Made by a program: the position numbers and the translations under genes. From an uncultured Gemmatimonadales bacterium (lineage in GTDB: Bacteria > Gemmatimonadota > Gemmatimonadetes > Gemmatimonadales > Gemmatimonadaceae), in assembly GCA_963850905.1 (NCBI GenBank), contig CAWKMU010000003.1, positions 1,715,156 to 1,779,155 of the forward strand: a stretch of 64,000 nucleotides of DNA. Reading direction: 5' to 3'. How positions within the stretch are numbered: the stretch's first letter is position 1; every line of letters starts with the position of its first letter. The notes beneath the pieces are model-generated. The model was not told where the DNA came from and did no database searches. It worked only from the letters and a program-made list of their open reading frames with translations. Shown one piece after another: positions 2,392-63,662 of this stretch.

Positions 2392-2410
2392 GGGGGGGCG
2401 GGCGCTTGGC

Positions 2411-2509
2411 GCCCGAGAGGGTAGAAACACGAGAGCAGAGAGTTGAAAGTAGCCAACGGCGGTCGTTGACTGTCTACTGTCTACCTTCTGACGGTCTACT
2501 CTCTCGGGC
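2411..2509. repeat. Heptad-arm palindromic element, copy R1 (degenerate)
   Basis: The outer ends gcccgagagggtaga (2411-2425) and tctactctctcgggc (2495-2509) are complementary. The arms show a 7-nt period (GAGAGCA GAGAGTT GAAAGTA / TGTCTAC TGTCTAC). The central hairpin is CAACG-gcggt-CGTTG (2454-2468). Confidence 0.45.
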
Positions 2510-2590
2510 GCGCCAGCGCCCGTCCCTAACCCCTGACCTCCCGGTCTGTTAAATTGCCGCCTCCTTGCATCACCTGCCTTTCGCATTGCC

Positions 2591-3235: not shown

Positions 3236-4414
3236 ATGTTGACGCCCGAGACGCTTCCCCGAATCCAGACGGCATTGTCGGATGCGGGACTCGACGGATG
3301 GCTCCTGTACGATTTCCGCGGCGCCAATCCGGTCGCCGCTGGCATCCTCCAGCTCAAGGGCCTCCAGACGCGTCGTATCTACGCGTATGTGCCGGCTCGC
3401 GGCGTGCCGACGGCGATCACACACGCCATCGAGCAAGGACCGTGGGAACACTGGCCGCCGACATGGGGGCGCGTGGTGTACAGCGGGTGGCGAGAGCTCG
3501 AGGCGGCGATCGCAGGGCTCGTACGTCGGCAGCGGGTTGCGATGGAATACTCACCGGGCGACGCGGTCCCCTACGTGGATCGCGTACCAGCAGGCGTCAT
3601 CGAGCTCGTTCGTGCGGCCGGAGCAGATGTCGTCTCATCCGGCGAACTAATCAGTCGATTCTACGCGGTGTGGACGGAGGCAGAACTTGCAGCGCATCGT
3701 CGTGCGGCGGTGGCGATTGCGGCTATTGGCCAGGAGGGCTTGCGCCTCGCGGGCGCGGATGCGGCGCGCGGTGAGCCGCAGACCGAATACGGACTTCAGC
3801 GCTGGATCCTGGAGCGTCTTGCGCGGGCCGGGCTCGAGACGCACGACGCGCCGATCGTGGCGATCGGCCCGAATGCGGCCAATCCGCACTACGCGCCCAG
3901 CGAGCAACCCGCTACGGCGATTGCGCCTGGCGCCGTTCTCTTGATCGACCTCTGGGCGCGCGAGCCCGGGCAGCCATTCGCAGACCAGACGTGGATGGGT
4001 GTACTTGGAGCGCCGACGGCGCAGGTGATCCGTGTGTGGGAGGCGGTACGCGACGCGCGCGATGCGGCAATCCAGTTGCTGCGCGATCGCCTGCCGACGG
4101 GCAAGCCCCTCCGAGGCGCCGAAGTGGACGACGCCGCCCGGCGAGTCATCGAGTCCCGCGGGTTTGGTCGATTCTTTGTGCATCGCACAGGTCACTCGAT
4201 CGATGCACGCGACCTCCATGGCTCGGGGCCCCACATCGACAATCTCGAGACGCGCGAGGAGCGATTGTTGATCCCGGGCGTGGCGTTCTCGATCGAGCCC
4301 GGCGTCTATCAGCCCGGTGTCCTCGGGGTGCGGTCAGAAGTGAACGCGATTGTCGGCGATCGCAGCGTCGAGATCACGCCGATCGACTATCAGCGCGAGT
4401 TGATGCGAGTGTAG
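3236..4414 (+). CDS. M24-family metallopeptidase (Xaa-Pro aminopeptidase-like)
   Basis: Pita-bread fold signatures: LLIDLWA..., HRTGHSID, GVAFSIEPGVY and a creatinase-like N-terminal half. Confidence 0.85.
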   Translation: MLTPETLPRIQTALSDAGLDGWLLYDFRGANPVAAGILQLKGLQTRRIYAYVPARGVPTAITHAIEQGPWEHWPPTWGRVVYSGWRELEAAIAGLVRRQRVAMEYSPGDAVPYVDRVPAGVIELVRAAGADVVSSGELISRFYAVWTEAELAAHRRAAVAIAAIGQEGLRLAGADAARGEPQTEYGLQRWILERLARAGLETHDAPIVAIGPNAANPHYAPSEQPATAIAPGAVLLIDLWAREPGQPFADQTWMGVLGAPTAQVIRVWEAVRDARDAAIQLLRDRLPTGKPLRGAEVDDAARRVIESRGFGRFFVHRTGHSIDARDLHGSGPHIDNLETREERLLIPGVAFSIEPGVYQPGVLGVRSEVNAIVGDRSVEITPIDYQRELMRV

Positions 4415-4429
4415 CGGCCTTCGGCCGCT
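4413..4429 (+). terminator. Stem-loop immediately after the M24 peptidase stop
   Basis: AGCGGCC-ttc-GGCCGCT directly follows the TAG at 4412-4414. There is no clear U-tract. Confidence 0.35.
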
Positions 4430-4435
4430 CGAGAG

Positions 4436-4503
4436 TGGAACCGCAGTAGAAAGTAGACGACAGCACTGCGCTAGGCTGTCTACTTCGTGCTGCTACTTTC
4501 TGG
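4436..4503. repeat. Heptad-arm palindromic element, copy R2
   Basis: Left arm CAGTAGA AAGTAGA CGACAGC. Right arm GCTGTCTACTTCGTGCTGCTACTTTCT. AGTAGAC pairs with GTCTACT. It lies between convergent genes and overlaps the stop of the minus-strand gene. Confidence 0.45.
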
Positions 4504-5512
4504 CGCCCTCCAGCGCGCTCCAGGTTCCGGGATCCTCTAATCCTAAGCGCCACAGGGCAAAGCGTCGAACACCGAGCGATTCGGCTGACGCGACGAGTGC
4601 GCGAGTCTGTCGAGCGTCGGTGACCCACGCCTCGCCGGAGTCTGGACGGAGAAAATGAAGCGCGCCTGATGCGGAATCACGGGAGAGTGGGATCCCCAGC
4701 TGAGCCGTCTGCTGCTGCGCGTCAGCGTAGCTCAGCACCGCCGCCGCGGCGGGGCGCTTCCAGAGATAGCCGTAGGTCGGAAGCCCAGCCACAAGGCGCC
4801 CAGGGCCAACCTCCGCGACGCGAAGGGCAAGTGCCTGCCGAAACCATCCCGGAGACGCAATCGGTCCCGGTGGACCGTTTGCCCAGTGCTCGTCGTACAG
4901 CATTGCGAGCAACAGGTCGGCGGCCGCGAGGTGTCTGCCGGCGTACACGAGCGTGTCGGTCGGCACGATGGCCACGGTCACGGGCCGCACGTGCCGGCCA
5001 TGGGCCGAATCGACAAACGCTTTCACGACAACGGTCAGCGCCGCCGTGTCATCCCGCGTGAGAGCCTCGAAGTCGAGGACGAGTCCCTGGTAACCGTGGG
5101 TCTTCGCCCAGGCCGCAACCGCTCCGGCAGCTCGAGCGCGGAGGTCTGGGTCACTCGCCAAGCGCGTGATCGTCTCGCGATGGAAGCGGTCGCGCTGATA
5201 AGTGGTGACGAGTGCGAATCGGTGTGGCCCGGGCGGGACCTTGATCGTGTCTGGGTAGACGGCCACCGGCATTGCGGTCAGCGTGTCGAGTCGAAGCCAA
5301 CCAGAAATGAGAACACGAAGAGCGGGTGCGACGCACGCGACGCTGGCAGCGCTTCGGGGGTCCCACGGAGCGGTAAACGCCCACACCTCGACGCGAAGTC
5401 GACGAACGGCGCCCGGACAGGGCGCCGCTCGTGAGATCCCGCGCTCAGGGGATGTGGCGGGAGCCGCGAAAGCGAGCGAGGTGACGAGCGCGCCGACTCG
5501 GACACGCTGCAT
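4493..5512 (-). CDS. Secreted glycoside hydrolase family 18-like protein
   Basis: GH18-type catalytic strand YQGLVLDFE (DxE) and a signal-peptide-like N-terminus from M11 (MQRVRVGALVTSLAFAAPA). The ATG at 5542 would overlap the divergent start at 5541, so the internal ATG was chosen. Confidence 0.55.
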   Translation of the reverse strand: MQRVRVGALVTSLAFAAPATSPERGISRAAPCPGAVRRLRVEVWAFTAPWDPRSAASVACVAPALRVLISGWLRLDTLTAMPVAVYPDTIKVPPGPHRFALVTTYQRDRFHRETITRLASDPDLRARAAGAVAAWAKTHGYQGLVLDFEALTRDDTAALTVVVKAFVDSAHGRHVRPVTVAIVPTDTLVYAGRHLAAADLLLAMLYDEHWANGPPGPIASPGWFRQALALRVAEVGPGRLVAGLPTYGYLWKRPAAAAVLSYADAQQQTAQLGIPLSRDSASGALHFLRPDSGEAWVTDARQTRALVASAESLGVRRFALWRLGLEDPGTWSALEGARK

Positions 5513-10832: not shown

Positions 10833-12236
10833 ATGAGCGCATCGATATCTCCACCGACTACAACGCGCGAGCACGGCGCACCTCCAGCGGAGGGACGTCC
10901 GCCCGCCGCGACCCATCTGGTCCGGCGACTGGGACTGTGGAGCGCCACCGCCGTGCTCGTGGGTACAACGATCGGGTCGGGCATCTTCCGATCGCCGGCG
11001 GGGATCGCGAACCGGCTTCCGGGTCCGCTCCCGATGATGAGCGTCTGGGTGATCGGTGGTCTCTTCGCCCTGTGCGGCGCGTTGACGCTCGCCGAGGTCG
11101 CGGGGGCGTTGCCGGAGACGGGCGGCCTCTATGTGTTCATTCGCGAAGGATGGGGTCGACTACCCGCGTTTCTGTTCGGATGGGCCGAACTCAGCGTGAT
11201 TCGCGCCGCCGCGCTCGGGGCCGTGTCCACCACCTGCGCGGAATACGGATTCCGATTGTTTGGCTTGGATCCATCCGCGCCCGCGAACGTGGGGCCGGTG
11301 CATTACGTCGCGGCCGTGTGCATCGCCGTCGTGGCGCTATTCAACTGTCGCGGCCTGCGGTGGGGCGCTCTGCTCCAAAACCTGACCACTGTCGCGAAGT
11401 ACGGTGGTCTGGCGTTCATCGTGGTCGTTGCCCTCGGCATCGGTCTGCGGCAGACCGGAGGCCACTTCACCCCCGCGGCGCCGGCGGGCAGCTTCGGCTT
11501 TGCGGCCTTCGGACTCGCGCTCGTGAGCGCCTTGTGGGCATTCAATGGCTGGGCCGATCTCAGTTTCGTCGCTGGCGAAGTGGAGGATCCTCGGAGGAAC
11601 CTGCCACGCGCATTGATCGGCGGGACGCTGGCGGTCATTGTGATTTACCTGCTGGCAAACGTCGCCTATCTGGCGGTGCTGCCGATCGAGCAGATACGCG
11701 TTTCCAAGTTGGTCGCAGCCGACGTGGCGCAACGGGTCTTGGGGACGCCGGGCACCGTGTTTGTCGCTGCCACGGTTGTCTTATCGACGTTCGGCACGCT
11801 GAACGGCTCGCTGCTCACGAGTCCTCGGATCTTTTTTGCAATGGCGGCCGATGGCCTGCTGGTGCGTCGAGTGGCGCGCGTGCATCCGGAGTACGGCACG
11901 CCCTATGTCGCCATTCTGCTGTCAGCGGTGCTCGGCATCTGTTTCGTGCTCTTGCGCACGTTCGAGCAACTCGCAGACACATTTGTCACCGCGATCGTGC
12001 CCTTCTACGCACTCGGTGTGGCGTCGGTCTTTATGTTGCGGCGCAAAGCGAGTTACAACCCGTCATTCCGCGTCCCGCTGTATCCGTTCGTGCCTGCGTT
12101 GTTCGTCCTTGCGACCATCTACTTGCTCGCGAACGCGCTCATCGATCCGACGAGTCAATGGGCGACGGCGGCGGTGCTCGGCGTTGTCGTCTTGGGCATA
12201 CCGCTCTACTACGTCACTGGTCGCGCGCGGCGTTAG
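10833..12236 (+). CDS. APC-superfamily amino acid permease
   Basis: Starts at the ATG at 10833 (MSASISPP...). Signature LWSATAVLVGTTIGSGIFRSPAG. About 12 hydrophobic segments. Confidence 0.85.
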   Translation: MSASISPPTTTREHGAPPAEGRPPAATHLVRRLGLWSATAVLVGTTIGSGIFRSPAGIANRLPGPLPMMSVWVIGGLFALCGALTLAEVAGALPETGGLYVFIREGWGRLPAFLFGWAELSVIRAAALGAVSTTCAEYGFRLFGLDPSAPANVGPVHYVAAVCIAVVALFNCRGLRWGALLQNLTTVAKYGGLAFIVVVALGIGLRQTGGHFTPAAPAGSFGFAAFGLALVSALWAFNGWADLSFVAGEVEDPRRNLPRALIGGTLAVIVIYLLANVAYLAVLPIEQIRVSKLVAADVAQRVLGTPGTVFVAATVVLSTFGTLNGSLLTSPRIFFAMAADGLLVRRVARVHPEYGTPYVAILLSAVLGICFVLLRTFEQLADTFVTAIVPFYALGVASVFMLRRKASYNPSFRVPLYPFVPALFVLATIYLLANALIDPTSQWATAAVLGVVVLGIPLYYVTGRARR

Positions 12237-16106: not shown

Positions 16107-16228
16107 GGAACGACTGCGGGTTTGGGGTCTGGGGTCTGGGGTAGCACAACAACACAGAAGGCCAGTCGCGCTGCGCATTGACTGGCCCTCGCGGTTTGTT
16201 CACCCCAACCCCCCAACCCCGAACCCGC
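16107..16228. repeat. Heptad-arm palindromic element, copy R3 (G-rich heptads)
   Basis: Left arm GCGGGTTTGGGGTCTGGGGTCTGGGGTAG. Junction CACAACAAC. Central hairpin GGCCAGTC-12 nt-GACTGGCC (16160-16187). Junction GGTTTGTT. Right arm CACCCCAACCCCCCAACCCCGAACCCGC. Lies between convergent genes. Confidence 0.7.
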
Positions 16229-17969: not shown

Positions 17970-19144
17970 GTGCGGACGCGAGTCAGCAGATACACGCCCG
18001 CAATCGTGAAGATCACGTTCGGAATCCAGGCCGCGAGATATGGCGGAATGAGTCCCTTGGCTCCGACGGCCTTGGTGAGCTGGATCATCATCAGGAACAG
18101 CACTGTGGTCGCCAGGCTGATCGCGATCCCGAAGGCTGCTCCGCCGCGTTGCGTGCTGGTGGCCAGCGGTGCACCGAACAGCGCAATGATGATGCACGTC
18201 ACCGGCACGGCGATCTTCTGCGCGAGCTCGACTTTGAGCTCGTCCGCGTTGCCGCCCGATCGCTCCAGGGCACCGATGAAGCGGCGCAACTCACCGAATC
18301 GCATGTCTTCCGGGTTCTTGGGTGCCGCCATCAGCTCCGGCGGGGCCTCACGCAGGTGGTTGTCGTGGGCGGAATCGAATTGTAGCGTCAAGTCGTCCAC
18401 GCTGTCCGGCACGACATGCAACACGCCCTGGACGAGCGTCCAGCCATGGCCGGCGTGCCAGTTGGCGTTCTGCGCCGACAGGATGTAGGTCGGATACGCG
18501 GGCCCAACGCCGTGGCGCTCGATCTCGACCGAATTCATCGAGCCGTGCCCCGCGTCCAGCCCTCCGACTTTGTAGACCCGCCCTTCCTCGGCGGCATACG
18601 CGAAGTTGTACCGCTGGTTCCCGCCGCGGAACTGTTGCTCCTCGAGAATCTCATCGTGCTTGGCGTTCGTCACCGGCGCCAACTCTCCGATGCCCAGACC
18701 CAAAACGGCGGCCAGACAGGCCGCGAAGAACACCGGCGCAGTCCATCGGTAGAAGCTGATGCCCGATGCTTTGGCGGCGGTGATCTCCGAGTGGCGAGTA
18801 AAGGCGCCGATGGAGAACACCGTTGCGAAGAGCACGGCGGCGGGGAGCACCAAAAACATGGAGCCCGGTACCCAGTACAGGTAACTCAGGGCGATCCGCG
18901 GCGCCGGGATGTTACGCTGGAGATACGTCTCGAGGTGGTCGGTCAGGTCGATCACGATGACCAGCACCGGAAACCCAATGGCGGTCGTGACGAAGATCTT
19001 GACCCACTCGAGGAATACGTAGGCGTCGAGCGGGCCCACGGTCATGCGCTTGCGGGCGCTCGTCGACCGTGTCCGGGCACGTTCGGCGCGCTCGGGTGCC
19101 GATGGCGGTACCGCCACGAGGGCGCGCTCCTCGATGGCCGTCAC
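17966..19144 (-). CDS. lptG: LPS export permease LptG-like (YjgP/YjgQ family)
   Basis: Sequence LDAYVFLEWVKIFVTTAIGFPVLVIVIDL...ITAAKASGISFYR and a C-terminal TM bundle. The GTG at 19142-19144 overlaps the lptF stop (GTGA). Confidence 0.75.
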   Translation of the reverse strand: MTAIEERALVAVPPSAPERAERARTRSTSARKRMTVGPLDAYVFLEWVKIFVTTAIGFPVLVIVIDLTDHLETYLQRNIPAPRIALSYLYWVPGSMFLVLPAAVLFATVFSIGAFTRHSEITAAKASGISFYRWTAPVFFAACLAAVLGLGIGELAPVTNAKHDEILEEQQFRGGNQRYNFAYAAEEGRVYKVGGLDAGHGSMNSVEIERHGVGPAYPTYILSAQNANWHAGHGWTLVQGVLHVVPDSVDDLTLQFDSAHDNHLREAPPELMAAPKNPEDMRFGELRRFIGALERSGGNADELKVELAQKIAVPVTCIIIALFGAPLATSTQRGGAAFGIAISLATTVLFLMMIQLTKAVGAKGLIPPYLAAWIPNVIFTIAGVYLLTRVRT

Positions 19145-20913
19145 GATGCGCGCTCCGCGGGTAGTGGACCCGGTCGCGCCCCGATCCGAACGTTCGACCA
19201 CCATGCTTTGATCGCGTCCTTCAGTTCGCCGAGCTCGCCGCCGCGCGACGTGGCTCCGGCGCGGCCGACCCGCGCGAGCAATGCCACTCCGGCGGCCAGG
19301 AAGATCACATTGGATGCCCACATCGCCCAGAAAGGCGAGACCGTGCCGTTCTGCGCCAGCGGCTCGCCGGCGATGAGCCCGACATAGTAGAGGCCGAACA
19401 CGGCGAAGCTCACGCCGATGACCAGGCCGACGCCGCCTCGGGGAAAGCGAAGCGCGACGGGCGCGCCGAGTAACACGAAGATCGCGCACGCCACCGAGAT
19501 GGCGAACTTCTTTTGGATTTCCACATCGTACGTGGCGTTGGTCCGACGATTGTCCTCGATCCGCGCGCGATCGGCATCGAAACTTGCGCTCAGCGTATTG
19601 AGCGTCGCGACGGCGCTGATCGGGATCACTTGCGAAATCGTCGTCGGTTTTGGTGGCGGACCGATCGCCGACGGGACGTTGGCTGGCAACAGCGGCTTAG
19701 CGGCAGCGCCAACCGCAGGCAGGCCAGCCGACGGCGCCCCAGATGATGGCAAGCCCGCGGAAGGCGGCAGGCCCGCGGAAGGCGGCAGGCCCGCGGAAGG
19801 CGGCAAACCGGCCGACGGCCCAGCTCCGGCGCCACCCGCGGGAGGTGGCCCGGGGTTCGCGAACGGTGCTACGGCGGCAGGGCCACCCAGGCTCGCGCCC
19901 CCCAGCGTGGTGTCGGCGCGACTCGCCCGAGTCACTCTGGCGAGGAGGTCGCAATACAAGCGTCCGACGCTCGGTTTGGGCCGGAAGGGGTTGGTCGGCG
20001 CGCCTGGTGGCGCCGGCGGCGTCGCGCTCGTACCCGTCGCCGCAATCCGCGCGGCGTTGACGAACTGAAAGCGAATCTGTTGGCGTGCCTCGGCGTCGGC
20101 ACGCTCGGCGTCGGCGACGACCTGCTGCATCTCGCACACCGACATCTCGCGCTCGCTCTTGTAGGTATCGTTGGTGGACCGGGTGAGCGTGTTGCCGACG
20201 CCCCGGACTCGTACGTGATTCACGATATAATAGATGCGCTGCAGCTCCGCGGGGTTCGCCTTCTGCACGTCCTGAATGACCCCGTGGAAGAGGTTGAGCT
20301 TCAGATCGCCGTCGGCCGTCAGCCCCATGGTGCCGCTGTCCGCGTAGATGGTCCGACGCCTCGACGCATCGCCCAGGTCGTAGATCACGACCTCCCGCAT
20401 GCGGTCGGTGGCCTCATCGAGTTGACCCGCACGCAGATAGAGCTTGCCCGGCGAGACTTCGTTGATCACCTGGGCATGGAGGGCGAATGTCGGCTTTTTG
20501 CGGGCGATGTCTTCCATGAGCGTCCGCAGCTGGTGATTCGACCGGGGCAACACCTGGTCGTTGAAGGCGATCATGAACAGCGACAGGCCGGCGGCCGCAA
20601 TGAGCGTCGGGATGAGGAGGCGGCTCAGCGAGACGCCGCTCGCCTTCATCGCGGTGATCTCGTTTTCCGCCGCAAGCCGGCTGAAGGCGTACAGAACGGC
20701 TACGAGCACGGCCATTGGCAACGTCATGGCGAACGTGAACGGCACCGACAGCCCGACGAACTCGCCGATCACGCTCCACGGCAACCCCTTCCCGACGAGG
20801 TTGCCGATGTTCTTTGCGATATAGTTCAGTAGCAGAAGCGACGTGAGCGCCGTCAGGGAAAAGAGCAGCGGGCCCAAGTGCTCTCGGAGCGCGTATTTGC
20901 TGAGTATCTTCAC
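19141..20913 (-). CDS. lptF: LPS export permease LptF-like (YjgP/YjgQ family) with a large Pro/Ala/Gly-rich insertion
   Basis: The GTG at 20911-20913 gives VKILSKYALREHLGPLLFSLTAL...ITAMKASGVSLSR. The periplasmic part carries a low-complexity insert of about 130 aa that includes (PSAGLP)n. Confidence 0.75.
   Translation of the reverse strand: MKILSKYALREHLGPLLFSLTALTSLLLLNYIAKNIGNLVGKGLPWSVIGEFVGLSVPFTFAMTLPMAVLVAVLYAFSRLAAENEITAMKASGVSLSRLLIPTLIAAAGLSLFMIAFNDQVLPRSNHQLRTLMEDIARKKPTFALHAQVINEVSPGKLYLRAGQLDEATDRMREVVIYDLGDASRRRTIYADSGTMGLTADGDLKLNLFHGVIQDVQKANPAELQRIYYIVNHVRVRGVGNTLTRSTNDTYKSEREMSVCEMQQVVADAERADAEARQQIRFQFVNAARIAATGTSATPPAPPGAPTNPFRPKPSVGRLYCDLLARVTRASRADTTLGGASLGGPAAVAPFANPGPPPAGGAGAGPSAGLPPSAGLPPSAGLPPSAGLPSSGAPSAGLPAVGAAAKPLLPANVPSAIGPPPKPTTISQVIPISAVATLNTLSASFDADRARIEDNRRTNATYDVEIQKKFAISVACAIFVLLGAPVALRFPRGGVGLVIGVSFAVFGLYYVGLIAGEPLAQNGTVSPFWAMWASNVIFLAAGVALLARVGRAGATSRGGELGELKDAIKAWWSNVRIGARPGPLPAERAS
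19748..19810. repeat. 18-bp tandem repeat (about 3.5 copies) inside lptF
   Basis: The plus strand reads ggcaagcccgcggaa ggcggcaggcccgcggaa ggcggcaggcccgcggaa ggcggcaaaccggcc. On the minus strand this encodes PSAGLP PSAGLP PSAGLP. Confidence 0.8.
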
Positions 20914-21051
20914 GGTTTGAAATTCCGCCCTGTCAATCGTCAAATTCAAGGCCGAAGGGCTCGCAGGGCGGGTAACAGAAGGGGCGCCATCGGCGTCCTC
21001 GACCGGACCGCCAGCGGCAACGGCAGACTGGTCGCACCCATTCACCCGCCT

Positions 21052-25175: not shown

Positions 25176-25232
25176 CAGGGTTAGGGGTTAGAGGTCAGGG
25201 AACGACAACGGCCGGCTGCAACGGCCGGTTGC
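25176..25232. repeat. Heptad-arm element, half copy R4
   Basis: CAGGGTT AGGGGTT AGAGGTC AGGGAAC GACAACGGCCGG, followed by a small hairpin GCAAC-ggccg-GTTGC. No complementary C-rich arm follows. Confidence 0.5.
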
Positions 25233-25265
25233 GAGCCCGTGGCATATCACTCGGAAAACCATACT

Positions 25266-26465
25266 ATGCCTAGCTTCACCTACACTGCACGAGCCCTGAA
25301 CGGCGAGCTCAAAACGGCGACGATCGACGCGGCTACCCGCGAGGACGTCGTCGCCCAGCTGCGGCGCCAGCGGTTGACCGTCGTCAAGGTCGACGAGGAA
25401 GCGAAGCGCCGAAAGCCGAGCGGTGGCGGCATCAAGATGCGGGACATCGTCATCTTCACGCGGCAGTTCTCGACGATGATCAACTCGGGTCTCCCGCTGG
25501 TGCAGGCGCTCGACATTCTCGCCAAGCAGAGCCAGAACAAGGCGCTCCAGGATGTGACGCGCGCCGTGGTATTCGACGTCGAGTCGGGGCACACCGTGGC
25601 CGATGCGCTCCGGAAGCATCCGCGGGCCTTCAATGAGCTCTACGTCAACATGGTCGCGGCGGGCGAGGCCGGCGGTATTCTCGACACGATCCTGATGCGT
25701 CTCGCGACGTTCATGGAGAAGAACGACGCCCTCGTCCGCAAGGTGAAGGGCGCCATGATCTACCCCTGCGTCATCATGGCGGTCGCCGCGATCGCCTGCA
25801 GCGTGTTGCTGATCTTCGTCATCCCCGTGTTCGAGAACATGTTCGGGTCGGTCGGCCTCGCGCTGCCGCTGCCGACCCGCATCGTGATCGGAGTCTCAAA
25901 ATTCATCCGCGGATACGGCGGGCTCGCGGCGGTCGGTGGCGCGATTGGCGGCGGGTTCGCGGTCAAGAACTACTATGCGACGCCAGTCGGCAAGCTGCAG
26001 ATCGACCGCCTGCTGCTGAGCCTCCCGGTGCTGGGTGATGTGTTGCGCAAGTCGGCCGTCTCGCGCTTCACCCGCACACTGGGCACGCTCATCAGCTCCG
26101 GTGTCAGCATTCTCGATGGTCTCGAGATCACAGCCAAGACCTCCGGCAACCGGGTCATTCAGGACGCGATCATGCAGTCGCGAGCCAGCATCGCCGGCGG
26201 TGACACGATTGCCGCGCCGTTGGCCAAGTCCGCCGTGTTTCCGCCAATGGTGATCTCGATGATCGCCGTCGGTGAGTCCACCGGTGGTCTCGACGAAATG
26301 CTGGCGAAAATCGCCGACTTCTACGACGAAGAGGTCGACGCAGCGGTCTCCGCGCTCCTCTCCCTGCTCGAGCCGGTCATGATCGTGTTTCTCGGTGTGG
26401 TCGTCGGCGGCATGGTGGTCGCCATGTACCTGCCGATCTTCGACATGATCAATGCGGTGAAATAA
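25266..26465 (+). CDS. pilC: Type IV pilus platform protein PilC (GspF family)
   Basis: The ATG at 25266 gives MPSFTYTARALNGELKTATIDA. Two GspF repeats are present (FTRQFSTMINSGLPLVQAL / FTRTLGTLISSGVSILDGL). Confidence 0.9.
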   Translation: MPSFTYTARALNGELKTATIDAATREDVVAQLRRQRLTVVKVDEEAKRRKPSGGGIKMRDIVIFTRQFSTMINSGLPLVQALDILAKQSQNKALQDVTRAVVFDVESGHTVADALRKHPRAFNELYVNMVAAGEAGGILDTILMRLATFMEKNDALVRKVKGAMIYPCVIMAVAAIACSVLLIFVIPVFENMFGSVGLALPLPTRIVIGVSKFIRGYGGLAAVGGAIGGGFAVKNYYATPVGKLQIDRLLLSLPVLGDVLRKSAVSRFTRTLGTLISSGVSILDGLEITAKTSGNRVIQDAIMQSRASIAGGDTIAAPLAKSAVFPPMVISMIAVGESTGGLDEMLAKIADFYDEEVDAAVSALLSLLEPVMIVFLGVVVGGMVVAMYLPIFDMINAVK

Positions 26466-26468
26466 GGG

Positions 26469-26585
26469 CTGGACGTTAGACGTTGGACGTTGGAGACAAA
26501 CCTCGAGGGCCAGCCACGGTGCACCGTAGCTGGCCCTCGAGGTTTGTTAACGTCTAACGTCTAACGTCCAACGTCTACCGTCTAA
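26469..26585. repeat. Heptad-arm palindromic element, copy R5 (best-preserved, GACGTT heptads)
   Basis: Left arm GGACGTT AGACGTT GGACGTT GGAG. A perfect 19-bp inner stem ACAAACCTCGAGGGCCAGC / GCTGGCCCTCGAGGTTTGT surrounds the loop cacggtgcaccgta. Right arm TAACGTC TAACGTC TAACGTC CAACGTC TACCGTC. It overlaps the last codons of tonB. Confidence 0.8.
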
Positions 26586-35791: not shown

Positions 35792-37161
35792 GCGCCAACG
35801 GCCAGCCGACCGTGCTTGTCATCGACGACGAGATGGGCATTCTCGAGTCGCTCCGGATCCTCCTCAAGAACGAGGGATTCAGTCCCACGATCGCCAACGG
35901 TGGGAAGCAGGGGCTCGAGCAGATCGAAGAGCTTCGGCCGGATATCATCTTGAGTGATGTCCGGATGCCTTCGGTGAGCGGCGTGCAGGTCCTGAGCGCC
36001 GCGCGAGCGCAAGATCCCGACGTGCCGGTCATCCTCATGACGGCGCAAGCGACCCTGCAGTCGGCAATGCAGGCGGTCAACGAAGGGGCGTTCTACTACA
36101 TCCAAAAGCCGTTCCGCAACGATGAGATGCTCGCCATTCTCCGACGGGCAGCCGAGCATCGAAAACTGCGTGTCGAGAACCGGTCCCTGCGACAGGAGAT
36201 CACTCGACGGGAACGGACATCGTCCAATCGGCCTGTCGGGAGCAGCAAGTCCTGGCTCGACATCGTCCAGCTCGCGGAGACGGTTGCGCCGACCGAGTCC
36301 ACCATCCTGATCCAGGGCGAGTCGGGCACCGGGAAAGAGGTCATTGCGAGGTACATCCACCAGTTGTCGCTGCGCACGGATGGTCCGTTTCTCTCCATCA
36401 ACTGCGGCGCGCTCCCTGAGAGCCTGCTCGAGTCCGAGCTCTTCGGCCACGTGAAGGGCTCGTTCACCGGCGCGGTCAGGGACAAGAGCGGATTGTTCAC
36501 CGCGGCGGCGGGCGGCACGTTCTTCCTGGACGAAATCGGCGAGACCACACCGGCGACCCAGGTGAAGCTGCTGCGCGTCCTCCAACACCGTGAGGTCATT
36601 CCGGTCGGGGCGACAGAAGCCATCCCGATCGACACGCGCCTCGTCGCGGCGACGAATCGTGATCTCGAGGAAGAGATCAAACGGGGCGCGTTCCGCAGCG
36701 ACCTGTTCTATCGACTCAACGTCATCGCGCTGCACCTGCCGCCGCTGCGCGAGCGACGCGATGACATCCCGCTGCTCGTCGATTTGTTCCTGCACCGGGC
36801 GTCGGAAGCTCGGGGCGAGCCGGCGAAGCAGGTCAGCACAGCGGCGCTCGATGTGCTACAGGGCTTCAACTGGCCAGGCAACGTGCGAGAGCTCGAGAAT
36901 GCCCTCGAGCGCGCGGTGATTCTGACCGCTGGCCCGATCATCGATGTCAACGTGCTACCGGAACGGATCACGGAGCGGCGCGCCGAGCCACTCGTCTCGG
37001 AGCGCATGCGGACGAATCCGACGCTCGAGGCAATCGAGCGGGCGTACATTCTGTGGGTTCTCCAGAGCGAGGGCGGGAACAAGACCCGGGCGGCCGACGT
37101 GCTGGGTATCGACCCATCGACGCTGTATCGGAAACTGTCGCGGTTTGGGGTCGAGGCGTGA
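35788..37161 (+). CDS. pilR: Sigma-54-dependent response regulator, PilR-like (NtrC family)
   Basis: Receiver domain (PDIILSDVRMP), AAA+ sigma54-activator motifs GESGTGKEVIARYIH, GAFRSDLFYRLNV and ESELFGH, and a C-terminal Fis-type HTH (NKTRAADVLGIDPSTLYRKL). Confidence 0.85.
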   Translation: MSANGQPTVLVIDDEMGILESLRILLKNEGFSPTIANGGKQGLEQIEELRPDIILSDVRMPSVSGVQVLSAARAQDPDVPVILMTAQATLQSAMQAVNEGAFYYIQKPFRNDEMLAILRRAAEHRKLRVENRSLRQEITRRERTSSNRPVGSSKSWLDIVQLAETVAPTESTILIQGESGTGKEVIARYIHQLSLRTDGPFLSINCGALPESLLESELFGHVKGSFTGAVRDKSGLFTAAAGGTFFLDEIGETTPATQVKLLRVLQHREVIPVGATEAIPIDTRLVAATNRDLEEEIKRGAFRSDLFYRLNVIALHLPPLRERRDDIPLLVDLFLHRASEARGEPAKQVSTAALDVLQGFNWPGNVRELENALERAVILTAGPIIDVNVLPERITERRAEPLVSERMRTNPTLEAIERAYILWVLQSEGGNKTRAADVLGIDPSTLYRKLSRFGVEA

Positions 37162-51559: not shown

Positions 51560-51565
51560 GGCAAC

Positions 51566-51722
51566 GGCCGGGGTCCGGGGTCCGGGGCCCGGGAACGACA
51601 ACCGCAGGACGCTCGGGGCCAGTCGCAGGAGACCGCGACTGGCCCTATAGTTTTGTAGCGGGTTCCGTGTTCGCAGCTGCAGTTCCCGGACCCGACCTGT
51701 AACCCGGAACCCGGACCCCGGC
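51566..51722. repeat. Heptad-arm palindromic element, copy R7
   Basis: Left arm GGCCGGGGTCCGGGGTCCGGGGCCCGGGAACGACAAC. Central hairpin GGCCAGTCGC-aggagacc-GCGACTGGCC (51617-51644) followed by CTATAGTTTTGT. Right arm ...CCCGGACCCGACCTGTAACCCGGAACCCGGACCCCGGCC. It fills the pilQ-aroC gap almost completely. Confidence 0.7.
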
Positions 51723-51725
51723 CTT

Positions 51726-52992
51726 TTGCTCTCCTTCACCACCGCAGGCGAATCACACGGCCCCGCGCTCGTCAGCATCCTCGAAGGGATGCCCGCCGGC
51801 GTGCCGCTCCTGGCCGCCGACGTCGACGCCGAACTGGCGCGACGGCAGCAGGGCTACGGCCGCGGCCGGCGCATGCAGATCGAGCACGATACCGTGGAGT
51901 TCCTCGCCGGCGTCCGCGCCGGCGAGACGCTCGGGTCCCCGATCGCGATGTACATTCGAAACCGCGACTGGGCGAACTGGCAACACATCATGGATCCCGC
52001 GCCGCGCTCGGAAGACCAGGTGCTCGCCGAGGACACCTCGCAGGCGGACGGCCCACGCCCGGTGCAGACGGTCGGCGCGGCTCGTGCTCGGCGGGCGCCG
52101 CGCGCGCGCGCGGTGACTCGGCCGAGGCCGGGCCATGCCGATCTCGCAGGAGTACTCAAGTACGATCGCGACGACGCACGTGATATCCTCGAGCGGGCGT
52201 CCGCACGAGAGACGACGGCGCGCGTCGCGGCCGGCGCTGTGTGCCGGCGGCTGCTGCGCGAGTTCGACATCACGGTTGGCAGCCATCTCGGTGCACCTCG
52301 GTGGCATCGACGCGATGCGCCCCGATGTGCTGCCAGCGGACATCAACGCGGCGGCGGACGCATCGCCGCTGCGCACGTTGGACCGTGAAGCCGAGCAGCG
52401 GATGATCGAGCGCATCGATGCGGTGAAGCGCGAGGGCAACACGCTCGGCGGCATCTGCGAAGTAGTGTGTGAAGGACTGCCCGTGGGATTGGGATCACAT
52501 GTCGCGTGGCATCGGAAGCTGGACGGCAGGCTCGGGGCCGCGTTACTCTCGATACCGGCCGTGAAAGGCGTGGAGATGGGGATCGGTTTCGAAGCGGCGC
52601 GCCGGACGGGAGCCGAGGTGCATGACGAAATCGAGCTCGCGCGCGACCGTCCTAAGAGTGGCTTCGTCAGACGGCGCACCAACCGTGCAGGAGGACTCGA
52701 AGGCGGCATGACCACTGGCGAGCCGCTCGTGCTTCGTGTAGCCATGAAGCCGATCAGTACGCTCATGCGGCCCCTGGGCACCATCGATACAGCGACCCGC
52801 GCGTCGGCGACTGCCGTCGCCGAACGCAGTGACGTCACCGCGGTGCCTGCGATGGGCGTGATCGCGGAGGCGATGGTCGCGTTCGTGATGGCGCAGGCGT
52901 TTCTCGAGAAGTTCGGGGGCGACTCCCTGGGTGAGTTACGACGGAACTACGAGGGATACCTGGCCCAGGTGGCCGGGCGCATGGCCGACTAG
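51726..52992 (+). pseudogene. aroC: Chorismate synthase, reading frame broken as sequenced
   Basis: The TTG start gives [16 protein letters not shown]...RPGHADLAG...FDITVGSH. Conserved sequence continues in ORF 52135..52992 (VHLGGIDA...GNTLGGICEVV...RSDVTAVPAMGVIAEAM). The break is near 52287-52291. Confidence 0.85.
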
Positions 52993-57801: not shown

Positions 57802-59272
57802 ATGCGCTCGGACCGCGTTTACATCGTTGGGGGCGGCTTGGCCGGCTGTGAGGCCGCCTGGCAACTCGCCGAACGCCAGATCCCGGTCGTTCTCTTGGAG
57901 ATGCGGCCGGGTCAGCCGACACCTGCCCACCGAACAGATCGGCTCGCAGAGCTCGTTTGCTCCAACACGTTCAAGAGCACGGAGCTCACGAACGCGCACG
58001 GGTTGCTGAAAGCCGAGATGCGCGCGTTGGGCTCATTGGTGCTCGCCGCCGCCGATGCTGTGCGCGTCCCCGGTGGCACCGCGCTAGCGGTGGACCGTGA
58101 GGCGTTCGCAGCCCTGGTGACCGAACGGATCGCGACGCACCCGCAGATTCGCGTCGAACGGCGCGAGGTGGCGAGCCTCCCCACTCCCGGCATCGTCGCG
58201 ACGGGGCCGCTCACATCTCGATGCACTGGCCGCGGCGCTTCGGCAGCGACTCGGCGCGGAGGCGCTCGCGTTCTACGATGCGATCGCGCCGGTTGTCGAC
58301 GTCGACTCGCTGGACCGCGAGCGGGTGTTCAGGGCATCGCGCTATGGCAAGGAGACCATGAGCTGCGGGGTCGGAGGTCAGGGGTCAGGGGTTGGGGAAC
58401 GGCAACGGCCGACAGGCGACGACGGTTCGACGAGCCTCGAGTCGGACGGCGCCGCTGCGGGCGATCAGGAGCAAGGCGCGGGTGGGGCGTACATCAACTG
58501 CCCGTTCACCCGTGAGGAATACGACGCATTCATCGACGCGCTGAGCACCGCCGACCAGCATCAGGCTCACGAGTTCGATGCCGTGCCGTACTTCGAGGGG
58601 TGTCTGCCCGTCGAGGTGATGGCGCAGCGGGGTCGGGACGTGTTGCGTTTTGGTCCGCTCAAGCCTGTGGGGCTCGTCGACCCCCGGACCGGCCGGCGAC
58701 CGTATGCCGTCGTCCAGTTACGCCGCGAGGATCGTGCTGGCCGGATGTGGAATCTCGTAGGGTTTCAAACGCGGTTGCGCATCGGCGACCAGCAGCACGT
58801 ATTCCGAATGATCCCAGGGTTGAGAGAAGCGGAGTTTCTGCGTTACGGGTCGATCCATCGCAATTCCTACGTGAACACACCGGCGGTTCTGACCCCGTAC
58901 CTCTCGCTACGAGACGACCCGCACACGTTGCTCGCCGGGCAGATGACTGGAGTTGAGGGATATACCGAGAGCGCCGCCACGGGCCTCCTCGCGGGAATCA
59001 ATCTCGCCCGCCTGCTCGCCGGAGATGGGCCCATCCTCCCGCCACCTACCACGATGCTGGGCGCGTTGTACCGCTACCTGCGCGAGGCCGATCCGCGCCA
59101 TTTTCAGCCGATGAACGCGAACTTCGGGCTGCTCGATGAGCTGCCGGAAGTCGTGCGCGACAAGCGACGGAAGCGGGAATTGTTCGCGGAGCGTGCCTTG
59201 CGCGATCTGACATCCTGGCGCGATGCGGCGATGGCCAGCGGCGCACCGATCGCGGAATCATGCGCATCGTGA
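57802..59272 (+). pseudogene. trmFO: Folate-dependent tRNA (m5U54) methyltransferase TrmFO, frame broken as sequenced and carrying an in-frame repeat-derived insertion
   Basis: FAD motif [18 protein letters not shown]...ATGPLTS. An extra base lies at about 58219. The sequence then continues as [27 protein letters not shown]...RASRYGK, an insertion of about 45 aa, then [14 protein letters not shown]...GQMTGVEGYTESAATGLLAG. Confidence 0.85.
58365..58415. repeat. Heptad-arm element, half copy R8, inside the trmFO coding sequence
   Basis: GCGGGGTCGGAGGTCAGGGGTCAGGGGTTGGGGAACGGCAACGGCCGACAGG has the same terminal GCGGGGTC, the same GGGGTCA heptads and the same GGGAAC-G-CAACGGCCG junction as the intergenic copies. 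Here it is translated as [18 protein letters not shown]. Confidence 0.5.
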
Positions 59273-62022: not shown

Positions 62023-62073
62023 GCGCGAGCACGGTGAGTTACTGTTAATTCACCACTTCATTAGGGGTCGGGG

Positions 62074-63662
62074 TTGTCCTCTAAACGCACTCAACAGGCG
62101 CTGGCCAAGCTGGCCGATCTCACACCACGGCAGATCGTGGCGGAGCTCAATCGCTACATCGTCGGCCAGGGTGAAGCGAAGAAAGCGGTGGCCATCGCGC
62201 TGCGGAACCGGTGGCGCCGTCAGCGCGCGCCCGAGACCATCCGGGAAGAGATCTCTCCCAACAACATCATCCTCATCGGCCCGACCGGGGTCGGGAAGAC
62301 GGAGATCGCGCGACGTCTGGCGAAGCTGGCAGGCGCCCCGTTCGTGAAGGTCGAGGCGTCGAAGTTCACGGAAGTCGGCTACGTCGGTCGTGATGTCGAA
62401 GGGATGGTTCGCGACCTGGTGGAGAGCGCGATCGATATGGTCAGGACGGAGCGCGAAGCGGAAGTCGAGGACCTCGCCAACGAACGCGTCGACGATCGAC
62501 TGCTCGATCTCCTGCTGCCCGTTCCGACGGATGCCAAGCCCAATGGGGCCGCACAAGCCGCGGTCCGTTCCGTCGTCCACTCCAGTCGGCGCCGCGACGG
62601 CGCACGCCGTGCCGGCAGGCCCGTCGTCGACCACCACCAGTGAGCGAGGAACGGTGTTCGTCGTATCGCCGCGCGGCGACGTCTCGGTCGGCGCCGGTGC
62701 GTCCAGTGCCAAATCCGCCGAATGAGCCGCCTGGTGACGGGGCGGGGGGCGACGAAGCTGCACAGGCCCGATATCAGCGCACGCGGGCGAAGCTACGCCA
62801 GCTGCTGCTCGACGGACAACTCGAGGGGCGCGAGGTGGAGGTCGAGGTGACGCACGCCGGCCCCCAGATGTGGGACGTCATGCTGCCGCAAGGCGCGCCT
62901 GAAGGGATGGAGAACTTCATGGAGATGCTCCAGGAGATGAGTCCGAAGCGGAAGAAACGCCGCACGGTCAAGGTCTCTGAAGCGCGCCGGATCCTCATAG
63001 AGCAGGAGTTGGACAAGCTCATCGATCACGAGGACGTGACCAGCGATGCGTTGGAGCGCGTCGAGAAGCTGGGCATCATCTTCCTCGACGAGATCGACAA
63101 GATCGCCGGCGAGCGAGGTCCGACAGGTGGTGGCGGGCCCGATGTTTCACGCGAAGGCGTGCAGCGGGATCTCCTGCCCATCGTCGAAGGCTCCAACGTC
63201 CAGACCAAGTACGGAATGGTGAAGACCGACCACGTCCTGTTCGTTGCGGCTGGCGCGTTCCACGTTTCCAAGCCCAGCGATCTGATCCCGGAGCTGCAAG
63301 GCCGGTTTCCGATCCGGGTCGAGCTCAAGCCGCTGACTGAGGAGGACTTCGTCCGGATCATGACCGAGCCGGAGAATGCGCTGACGAAGCAGTATGCGGC
63401 GCTCATCGAGGCTGAGGGCGCGACGCTCACCTTCACCGACGACGGCATCAGGGAGATCGCCAGCACGGCGGCACGCGTGAATCAGCGGATGGAGAATATC
63501 GGCGCCCGCCGGCTGCACACGGTGATGACGACGCTGCTCGAGGACGTCCTCTACGAGCTGCCCGATCGCGGTACGCAGCCCATCAACATCGATGCGGCGA
63601 GTGTGCGCGACCGGCTTCGCTCGATTGCCGACGACGAGGACTTGCGGAAGTACATACTTTAA
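62074..63662 (+). pseudogene. hslU: ATP-dependent protease ATPase subunit HslU, reading frame broken in the I-domain as sequenced
   Basis: N-terminal part [16 protein letters not shown]...[15 protein letters not shown]...[12 protein letters not shown] in the frame of 62074. The remainder ([23 protein letters not shown]...FLDEIDKI...[11 protein letters not shown]...ARRLHTVM) is in the frame of 62640. There is at least one indel between 62530 and 62725. The TTG start is tentative. Confidence 0.85.

Follow-up and report, generated by a model that had tools for sequence, protein, structure and literature searches.

Inverted heptanucleotide arrays flank terminator-like hairpins at gene ends in a Gemmatimonadaceae genome and its relatives

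The 64,000-nucleotide window analysed here, a stretch of the genome of an uncultured, soil-type Gemmatimonadales bacterium with a G+C content of 65.9%, carries tandem arrays of 7-nt units (heptamers) near the ends of several genes, and at some of these loci two arrays face each other in inverted orientation across a hairpin that resembles an intrinsic transcription terminator. An original prediction, made from the letters alone, had drawn attention to eight such loci. Scanning of the window with Tandem Repeats Finder (TRF) and with an autocorrelation scan at period 7 confirmed tandem heptamers at these loci, with runs at 2469-2504, 16117-16144/16203-16226, 25178-25200, 26470-26495/26546-26585, 45943-45977/46027-46057, 51565-51594/51695-51723 and 58367-58397; the 2.4 kb locus has them in one arm only, and the 4.4 kb locus contains two degenerate units that are seen by eye and that neither method reported. 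In total 10 period-7 runs were found, against 0.69 ± 0.82 (maximum 4) in 100 dinucleotide shuffles. The sole run off the listed loci, a TCTCTCC-like sequence at 37733-37757 within an open reading frame without Pfam match (ORF; 37053-38798), probably represents low-complexity coding sequence that is unrelated to the elements.

The element at 26.5 kb lies between two convergent genes, those of PilC (25239-26465) and of a TonB_C protein on the minus strand. Its 5′ arm (26470-26495; (T/A)GGACGT in 3.6 copies; arms and whole elements are given here as read on the plus strand, hairpins without a strand) begins 5 nt past the PilC stop codon (26463-26465), a central hairpin on a perfect dyad follows (26496-26547; ACAAACCTCGAGGGCCAGCC...GGTTTGT; spacer z -9.9), and the 3′ arm (26548-26585; TAACGTC in 5.4 copies) overlaps the stop codon (26575-26577) of the TonB_C gene. 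An inverted-repeat search aligned the arms over 22 nt at 95% and the central hairpin over 26 nt at 96%, and RNA folding compared with shuffled sequences gave z values of -12.7 and -12.3. The hairpin looks like a form of bidirectional intrinsic terminator common to the PilC and TonB_C genes.

A similar layout was found at 16.1 kb, where the 5′ arm (16117-16144; GGGGTCT in 3.6 copies) starts 12 nt past the stop codon of a TonB-dependent receptor gene, the hairpin (16160-16187; GGCCAGTC...GACTGGCC) has ACAACAACAC upstream and GGTTTGTTC downstream, and the 3′ arm (16203-16228) consists of CCCCAAC in 3.3 copies (fold z -6.0 and -5.9). The element between PilQ and aroC (51565-51723) comprises CCGGGGT in 3.7 copies, the junction GGGAACGACAAC at 51591, the hairpin GGCCAGTC...GACTGGCC (51617-51644), AGTTTTGT, a second small hairpin and AACCCGG in 3 copies; its arms match over 24 nt at 92%, and the fold z, obtained on a truncated sequence, is -2.8. 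Between the pilin gene and PilM (45943-46057), GGGGTCA in 4.4 copies is separated from CCCGATC/CCCTGAC in 4.6 copies by a 53-nt spacer without a significant hairpin (spacer z -0.4), the arms matching over 35 nt at 80% (fold z -6.2). The terminator hairpin of the pilin gene itself (45886-45921, plus strand; GGCCAGCC core, 16-nt arms at 100%) is solitary, with no heptamer arms of its own, and the GGCCAG-type core predicted for it was found at 45890. The copies at 16.1, 26.5, 45.9 and 51.6 kb are long and strong palindromes. The claim that the two arms of each copy match one another holds for 26.5, 51.6 and 45.9 kb and for 2.4 kb (17 nt at 94%), but only in part for 16.1 kb, where the arm units, GGGGTCT versus GGGGTTG, agree at about 5 of 7 positions per unit.

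The half element between PilT and PilC (25178-25235) consists of GGGTTAG/GGGTCAG in 3.3 copies, the junction GGGAACGACAAC (25198-25209) and a GGCCGG hairpin, and lacks a 3′ arm. At 2400-2520, between divergent genes, an element of AGTAGAA type carries the termini GCGCCCGAGAG and CTCTCGGGCGC and ACTGTCT in 5 copies in its 3′ arm (fold z -4.4), and a degenerate copy of it (E 4e-22) occupies 4418-4515 between the convergent genes of an M24 peptidase and a GH18-like protein. Folding was not significant compared with shuffles at 4.4 kb (z -1.6) or at either half copy. Finally, two units, GGGGTCG/GGGGTTG, remain at 62063-62076 between hslV and hslU and are absent from the orthologous site of L161, a relative's locus syntenic with the window from 47 to 64 kb. 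The locus at 58365-58415, described as an intergenic half copy, lies in-frame inside trmFO.

Alignment divides these loci into at least three sequence families, and one locus lies within a gene, so that the proposal of a single architecture for all eight was overstated. The first family, with GGGGTCN units and the GGGAAC junction, includes the loci at 16.1, 25.2, 45.9, 51.6 and 58.4 kb and the remnant at 62063; the second, with GACGTTR units, is the 26.5 kb element alone; the third, of AGTAGAA type with its GCGCCCGAGAG / CTCTCGGGCGC termini, comprises the 2.4 and 4.4 kb elements. The AGTAGAA type has, at each end and outside its GAGAG/CTCTC termini, an extra small hairpin GGGCGC-NNNN-GCGCCC (window 2400-2425 and 2495-2520; L161 3676-3700 and 3775-3800). 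Within the first family, exact copies of the junction GGGAACGACAAC are found at 25198 and 51591, and the copy at 58395 contains one mismatch. A hairpin of the form GGCCAG(C/T)C...G(G/A)CTGGCC, for which the chance expectation is none, occurs at 16160, 45890 and 51617, and in the 26.5 kb copy one inner pair is mismatched; the compensatory change of C-G to T-A in this hairpin is real. As a core common to all copies it fails, being found in three elements and the pilA terminator but not at 2.4, 4.4, 25.2 or 58.4 kb nor in the centre of the 45.9 kb element. The placing of several copies between convergent genes, as judged from Pfam matches and synteny with L161, stands for 4.4, 16.1 and 26.5 kb, while the others have different orientations: PilT and PilC flank the 25.2 kb copy, the pilin gene and PilM the 45.9 kb copy, and PilQ and aroC the 51.6 kb copy, each pair being co-directional, and the genes around 2.4 kb are divergent.

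To place the elements in a wider context, 160 PilC loci and 2 trmFO loci were joined with the window into a comparison set of 163 sequences (1.68 Mb), all from Gemmatimonadaceae or Gemmatimonadales, in which labels such as L161 denote loci of relatives; in genome and metagenome collections, the identity of the window PilC to Gemmatimonadaceae proteins from metagenome-assembled genomes does not exceed 90%, which places the organism in Gemmatimonadota. Rfam 15 at gathering thresholds reported no family anywhere in the window, and blastn-short with the window cores against all 163 sequences returned self matches only. Because the arms vary, TRF, regular expressions and nhmmer were more informative.

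The centre of these elements, an A-rich tract, a GC hairpin and a T-rich tract, had been likened to a bidirectional terminator, and the relatives back this likeness. In most species a plain A-tract / GC hairpin / T-tract terminator follows PilC, and in about 20 its stem is GGCCAG(C/T/A)C...G(G/A/T)CTGGCC, with compensatory variation, flanks of A5-9 and T5-9 and no heptamers (L017 11218, L089 4216, L091 4217, L115 4228, L121 4230 and about 15 more); among the fetched loci of those species, this type is nearly restricted to the site after PilC. Since the same plain terminators follow PilC elsewhere, the 26.5 kb core belongs to an ordinary terminator type common in the family, and the heptamer arms around it are, we infer, an addition. 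Past a stop codon, a GC hairpin with a T-rich tract after it and an A-rich tract before it is present at 16.1, 26.5 and 51.6 kb and in the pilA hairpin, and the terminator reading of the cores is well supported by their sequence and by the comparison with other species. A simple terminator scanner reported the 25.2 kb hairpin alone, on the minus strand, and missed the 16.1 and 26.5 kb cores, since the A and T tracts of these pair with each other as part of the stem.

A census in 1.64 Mb of Gemmatimonadaceae DNA, counting arrays with 2.8 copies or more, revealed a marked preference for period 7, with 135 arrays, compared with 39 of period 6, 31 of period 8 and 8 of period 5. By a crude GC-frame gene caller, which assigns 85% of the DNA to coding sequence and about 15% to intergenic, 105 of the 135 period-7 arrays are intergenic, while arrays of every other period are mostly coding. 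A reverse-complement partner within 300 nt accompanies 68 of the 135, versus 3 and 9 in two controls with scrambled orientation; about 40 real paired elements were listed, and TRF defines 30 inverted pairs. Unit sequence is by comparison free, with 110 unit classes among 179 arrays, although GGGGTCA recurs in four lineages and GGGAATC in three (L004, L086, L087). The suggestion that structure or periodicity rather than sequence is conserved is therefore borne out, as the period and inverted layout are kept over 110 unit classes and both arms change together between orthologues (see below). Among pairs with a spacer longer than 12 nt, spacer folding is significant in 14 of 27, and three more pairs abut with a loop of 3-8 nt.

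Arrays of other layouts were also encountered. Just past the xerC-like gene of L162 (6838-6975), (CAGGGGT)x6, (TATTCGC)x5 and (GCTAACG)/(GCTAACA)x8 follow one another head to tail, and neither a hairpin nor an inverted partner is present. At the positions flanking PilC, L073 (2471-2782) has side-by-side arrays of up to 18 heptamer units; (AGAGAAACAAC)x9 occurs in L029 (about 11195-11300); and the PilT-PilC spacer of L104 contains an array of units of about 12 nt over about 150 nt.

The arrays have a strand polarity. Where the nearest gene end is a 3′ end (86 arrays, median distance 9 nt), the sense strand is G-rich in 60 and C-rich in 21, and where it is a 5′ end (39 arrays), the sense strand is C-rich in 30 and G-rich in 7. 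Likewise, in the 30 TRF-defined inverted pairs the 5′ arm has more G than C in 25 and more C than G in 4. As such an element reads alike on both strands, the polarity means that transcripts from either side reach a G-rich array first. This strand rule could be taken as the mark of functional motifs, either G-quadruplex tracts or arrayed binding sites for a protein on RNA or DNA, placed in the 3′ untranslated regions of both genes and symmetrical because each of two convergent transcripts needs one, not through pairing of the arms. Transcripts ending at the core would hold the G-rich arm only, units such as GGGGTCN, GGGAATC and GGGGCAT contain tracts of three or four G, the median array has 3.9 units, and G-quadruplexes have been formed in vitro by the corresponding units of Xanthomonas and Nostoc (Rehm et al., 2015; PMC4692102). 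However, 102 of 170 arrays (60%) have no run of G3 or C3, no single sequence-specific binder could serve the 110 unit classes, of which several occur in one genome, and inverted pairs are just as frequent between co-directional genes, where transcripts would have no need of a second arm. We therefore regard such motifs as an improbable explanation.

Comparison of relatives also gives an impression of how the arrays change. Between L005 and L088, which are 99.7% identical, the difference is exactly one unit in one arm, the single case of a unit-number change between close relatives. Between orthologous elements whose flanks are 85-93% identical the units differ and both arms have changed together, as in L014 (GATTGCG) versus L025 (GAATGCG) and L022 (GGG(A/G)TCA) versus L025 (GGAGTCA), and the same holds for L018 and L120; in L025 even irregular outer and inner units are mirrored between the arms. 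Joint change of this kind, along with the position at gene ends and the very low folding energies (z down to -12.7), would also be expected of an RNA structure under selection, an extended terminator or a stem protecting the 3′ end, whose complementarity is kept by compensatory substitution. Against this, unit numbers of the two arms are often unequal (3.6 versus 5.4 at 26.5 kb; 4.4 versus 10.3 in L005), the unit variants at 26.5 kb are unmirrored, half of the arrays have no partner, and the 3′ arm would be untranscribed if the core terminates. When the sense and antisense RNA of 18 co-directional contexts were folded, the sense strand had the advantage in 7 and the antisense in 11 (Wilcoxon p = 0.13), and there is no sign of RNA-level selection through G-U pairs. 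Selection on RNA structure is in our estimate very improbable.

Evidence for dispersal comes from shared elements at sites that are not orthologous. L161 carries between PilQ and aroC (3676-3800) an element of AGTAGAA type whose identity to window 2400-2520 and 4418-4515 amounts to 74% over 127 columns (nhmmer E 1e-22 to 1e-33), and the orthologous PilQ-aroC site of the window has the GGGGTCC type instead. L161 also has (GACGTTC) x6.7 ... (GAACGTC) x5.3 at a locus different from that of the 26.5 kb element, and in L162 GGGGTCA arrays stand in four contexts. It follows that modules have been copied between loci. Differences in presence between relatives, which had been proposed as a check on mobility, were found as well: 81 nt in L011 correspond to 8 nt in L099 between flanks that are 94-95% identical, L022/L014 and L004/L087 are similar, and L039 holds a pair where L122 holds one array. 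The companion check failed, as none of these four filled/empty comparisons (L011/L099, L022/L014, L004/L087, L039/L122) has a target-site duplication, and the empty sites keep what may be a one-unit seed or remnant (TAGGGAATTCCCC in L087, TAGCTCTCGG in L099). Among the 40 ORFs of the 64-kb window, Pfam searches found no transposase, IS200 gene or gene for the tyrosine transposases associated with repetitive extragenic palindromes (REPs), known as RAYTs, and the sole recombinase is an xerC-like gene of the conserved trmFO-xerC-hslVU cluster.

The in-frame array of trmFO is a 72-nt in-frame indel (58359-58430, plus strand; GGGGTC(G/A) in 3.7 copies and the junction GGGGAACGGCAACGGCCG), clean with respect to the closest relative L161 (81% identity), and falls in a hypervariable loop of the protein. 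In relation to the TrmFO of T. thermophilus (3g5q), the insertion comprises 42 residues between RYGKE and AYINCP. Across Gemmatimonadota the loop RYGKET-GAYINCP is Gly/Glu-rich and about 14-61 residues long (window 58355-58480; proteins P0002-P0041), in several lineages it encodes GVRGQGS-type peptides, that is, in-frame GGGGTCA arrays (3 units = 21 nt = 7 residues), and that of L162 contains (AGGGGTC) x4.3, also in frame.

Such observations might be explained by non-autonomous mobile elements with inverted tandem-heptamer ends, resembling MITEs (miniature transposable elements with inverted repeats), the REP-derived elements called REPINs, or foldback elements, whose families differ in unit sequence and which are moved by a transposase or hairpin-recognising enzyme encoded elsewhere. 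MITEs, including the Rickettsia palindromic elements, are small dispersed palindromes, the latter occurring in-frame within genes, and eukaryotic foldback (FB) transposons have long inverted arms composed of short tandem repeats, in numbers that differ from copy to copy and from arm to arm. The present elements are likewise small, palindromic and dispersed, with one in frame in trmFO, but they show neither target-site duplications nor a parent insertion sequence, and the trmFO array, lying in a hypervariable loop that has GGGGTCA arrays in several lineages, could have expanded in place instead of being inserted. The foldback transposons, being eukaryotic, of kilobase scale and associated with coding sequences, provide an analogy only. 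A mobile origin would fit the unit, junction and core common to copies within one genome (three in L005, three in L039, two in L018 and the GGGGTCN group of the window), the AGTAGAA type with conserved GCGCCCGAGAG termini at non-orthologous sites of two species, the different families at the orthologous PilQ-aroC site, the L011/L099 difference, the copy in trmFO and the identical 12-nt junction at 25198 and 51591. Weighing against it are the four filled/empty comparisons, which are without clean boundaries as well as without target-site duplications and whose empty sites may hold a seed or remnant, the lack of a transposase, RAYT or IS200 gene in 64 kb, the 110 unit classes, which would demand many specificities or a sequence-blind enzyme, and the unpaired half of the arrays and compound head-to-tail arrays of different units as in L162. 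Hence of the MITE/REP-like mobility originally suggested, the dispersal of the AGTAGAA type and the presence/absence differences stand, whereas the missing duplications, the absence of an enzyme gene from the window and the many unpaired arrays tell against it, and we consider a true mobile family possible but unlikely.

The explanation that we favour, at a probability of about 50%, is that these are composite gene-end palindromes in which slippage-prone heptamer arrays flank terminator hairpins, the arms are homogenised across the dyad, and modules are sometimes copied between loci; the elements are not one mobile family. The core, where present, would be an ordinary and often bidirectional intrinsic terminator made of an A-rich tract, a GC stem and a T-rich tract, around which hypervariable inverted heptanucleotide arrays are set with the G-rich array 5′. 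The arrays would gain, lose and homogenise their units by replication slippage, which is the presumed cause of the observed change in unit number. The array on one side would then be copied to the other, and kept similar to it, by intramolecular template switching across the hairpin dyad, as suggested by the joint change of both arms between orthologues and by the mirrored irregular units of some elements. Finally, array-plus-junction modules may sometimes be copied elsewhere by template switching or ectopic conversion, the arrays providing homology and no transposase being involved; this route would account for the dispersal observed. As an outcome a terminator stem of about 20 bp would be lengthened to 40-50 bp. 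If the core terminates transcription the 3′ arm is left untranscribed, and transcripts ending there would carry the G-rich array only, so that the long hairpin would form only in read-through RNA or in extruded DNA, where it could serve as a putative insulation of neighbouring genes or as 3′-end protection.

Several points weigh against this explanation. The unit variants of the 26.5 kb element are unmirrored, the variable position being mostly G in the 5′ arm and mostly T in the 3′ arm, and unmirrored variants in some elements mean that copying between arms is neither continuous nor universal. Half of the arrays lack a partner, and in some pairs the central hairpin is missing or the spacer is about 100 nt long and without structure, which makes inverted heptamer arrays, rather than the junction or the core, the common denominator. 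The folding comparison of co-directional contexts (7 versus 11) gives no help either. Slippage alone does not account for the strong preference for period 7 or for the G-rich 5′ arm, and the fact that unit classes and the junction recur at unrelated loci is compatible with a true mobile element too. Moreover, termination at the cores is predicted from sequence, and a role of the arms is putative.

Several other candidates were dropped: stop codons in all three frames supplied by stop-containing heptamers, as many units have no stop; Shine-Dalgarno-like units, which are not general; footprints of 7-bp target-site duplication, which would yield direct and not inverted flanks; and CRISPR or integron sites, whose architecture does not match.

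The repeats had not been recognised as a described family; however, intergenic heptanucleotide repeats are a described class. The short tandemly repeated repetitive (STRR) sequences of cyanobacteria, described by Mazel et al. in 1990, we take to be the same kind of repeat as these arrays. According to the later papers that summarise their survey, Mrazek et al. (2007) found heptanucleotides to be the most abundant class of long repeat and suggested polymerase slippage (PMC4679880, PMC4692102). In Xanthomonas, GGGAATC repeats number about 186 per genome, of which 70-75 are in convergent inverted pairs, within 50 bp of stop codons; lengths vary between Xcc and Xac, about four units are preferred, and G-rich units lie on the coding strand within 50 bp after stops and, ahead of ORFs, on the non-coding strand (Rehm et al., 2015; PMC4692102). 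That study, which also included the GGGGA(C/T)T units of Nostoc, proposed G-quadruplexes and left the function open. TAACTGA heptamers have further been described as direct repeats in Beggiatoaceae, Cyanobacteria and Bacteroidetes (MacGregor, 2015; PMC4679880).

By its tandem 7-nt units in about four copies, strongly intergenic position, inverted pairs and strand rule, the Gemmatimonadaceae repeat is of the same class as the intergenic heptameric repeats of Xanthomonas and cyanobacteria, and as in Xanthomonas, length and sequence vary between close relatives while the single or paired type is kept. It departs from that class in its units, which in the window are GGGGTCN, GACGTTR and AGTAGAA and not of the GGGNATC type with four G-tracts able to form a G-quadruplex; in the lineage, GGGAATC was seen in L004, L086 and L087 only, and 102 of 170 arrays have no G3 or C3 run. 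What the present data add is the diversity of units within one genome, several unrelated ones sharing a single 64-kb window where one unit dominates each genome of Xanthomonas or Nostoc, together with the terminator core and its conserved junction at the centre and the dispersal of composite modules, neither of which is described for the Xanthomonas or Nostoc repeats, and the in-frame arrays of trmFO. Long heptanucleotide simple sequence repeats and STRR sequences are similarly intergenic and slippage-prone, the heptanucleotide being the most abundant long unit in large, high-GC, free-living genomes, but in those accounts they are defined as simple tandem repeats, their definition including neither inverted pairing at gene-end hairpins nor a strand rule, and Gemmatimonadota are not covered. 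The TAACTGA repeats, also short intergenic 7-nt arrays near ORF boundaries with a patchy phylogenetic spread, differ in having one fixed unit that is nearly always direct and just upstream of starts, with one indirect repeat reported (PMC4679880). REPs, the bacterial interspersed mosaic elements (BIMEs) and REPINs, which are mobilised by RAYT transposases, are likewise numerous GC-rich palindromes between genes and at their ends; many stand in inverted pairs, and some act in termination or mRNA stability. REPs, however, are units of fixed sequence, 20-40 nt long, headed by GTAG or CGTC and linked to a RAYT (Y1 transposase) gene (PMC3116915, PMC3733652). Here no fixed palindrome in near-identical copies is seen, as unit and core sequences vary between copies, nor is there a conserved head at the stem ends. 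A literature search found nothing linking Gemmatimonadota with heptamer or tandem intergenic repeats, and the REP surveys mention neither the phylum nor heptamers.

In practical terms the elements mislead gene callers, through stops inside arrays and the in-frame array of trmFO, and are hotspots of assembly and length variation. The public gene call P0001, a TrmFO fragment of 304 aa with 100% identity, starts at an ATG within the heptamer insertion of trmFO. This gene (57814-59272) has an apparent one-base frameshift near 58218-58220, where frame 1 continues as nonsense after ...ATGPLTS and frame 2 matches TrmFO onward. Two other genes appear split: aroC (51726-52992), of which ORF 52135-52992 covers only positions 152-327 of the Chorismate_synt profile, and hslU (62074-63662), with ORFs of 189 and 340 aa in place of the single 528 aa of L161. 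Three apparent frameshifts in 12 kb suggest assembly indel errors or pseudogenes. Just upstream of the overlap between the two aroC ORFs there are a (GC)11 run and a GC-rich palindrome (52072-52141). Elsewhere, in a gene of the LptF/LptG family (19141-21045, minus strand), the 18-nt sequence GGCAGGCCCGCGGAAGGC is repeated 3.2 times in tandem (19748-19805, 97% match), which would be an in-frame repeat of six residues.

Why intergenic heptamers accumulate, often in inverted pairs beside stop codons, has been a long-open question since the STRR sequences and the surveys of 2007 and 2015. The Gemmatimonadaceae elements provide a natural experiment, in which period 7, inversion, adjacency to stops and G-rich-5′ polarity are kept while the unit sequence varies, and in which the arrays are tied to terminator hairpins. 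This free variation (110 classes, 60% of arrays without G-tracts) argues against G-quadruplexes or a single binding motif as a general explanation, and the pattern points to a mechanism or constraint sensitive to period and polarity. In the boldest reading, which we consider quite unlikely, a period-7-specific and sequence-blind process builds inverted heptad arrays at gene ends, keeps their arms alike and copies them between loci, across Gemmatimonadota and probably also in Xanthomonas and cyanobacteria; either a dedicated enzyme or copy synthesis primed by hairpins at terminators might underlie it. If true, the elements would be a self-propagating prokaryotic 'foldback' repeat of a new kind, or a new terminator-linked regulatory structure, instead of passive products of slippage, and the fixed G-rich-5′ polarity would be the footprint of the process.

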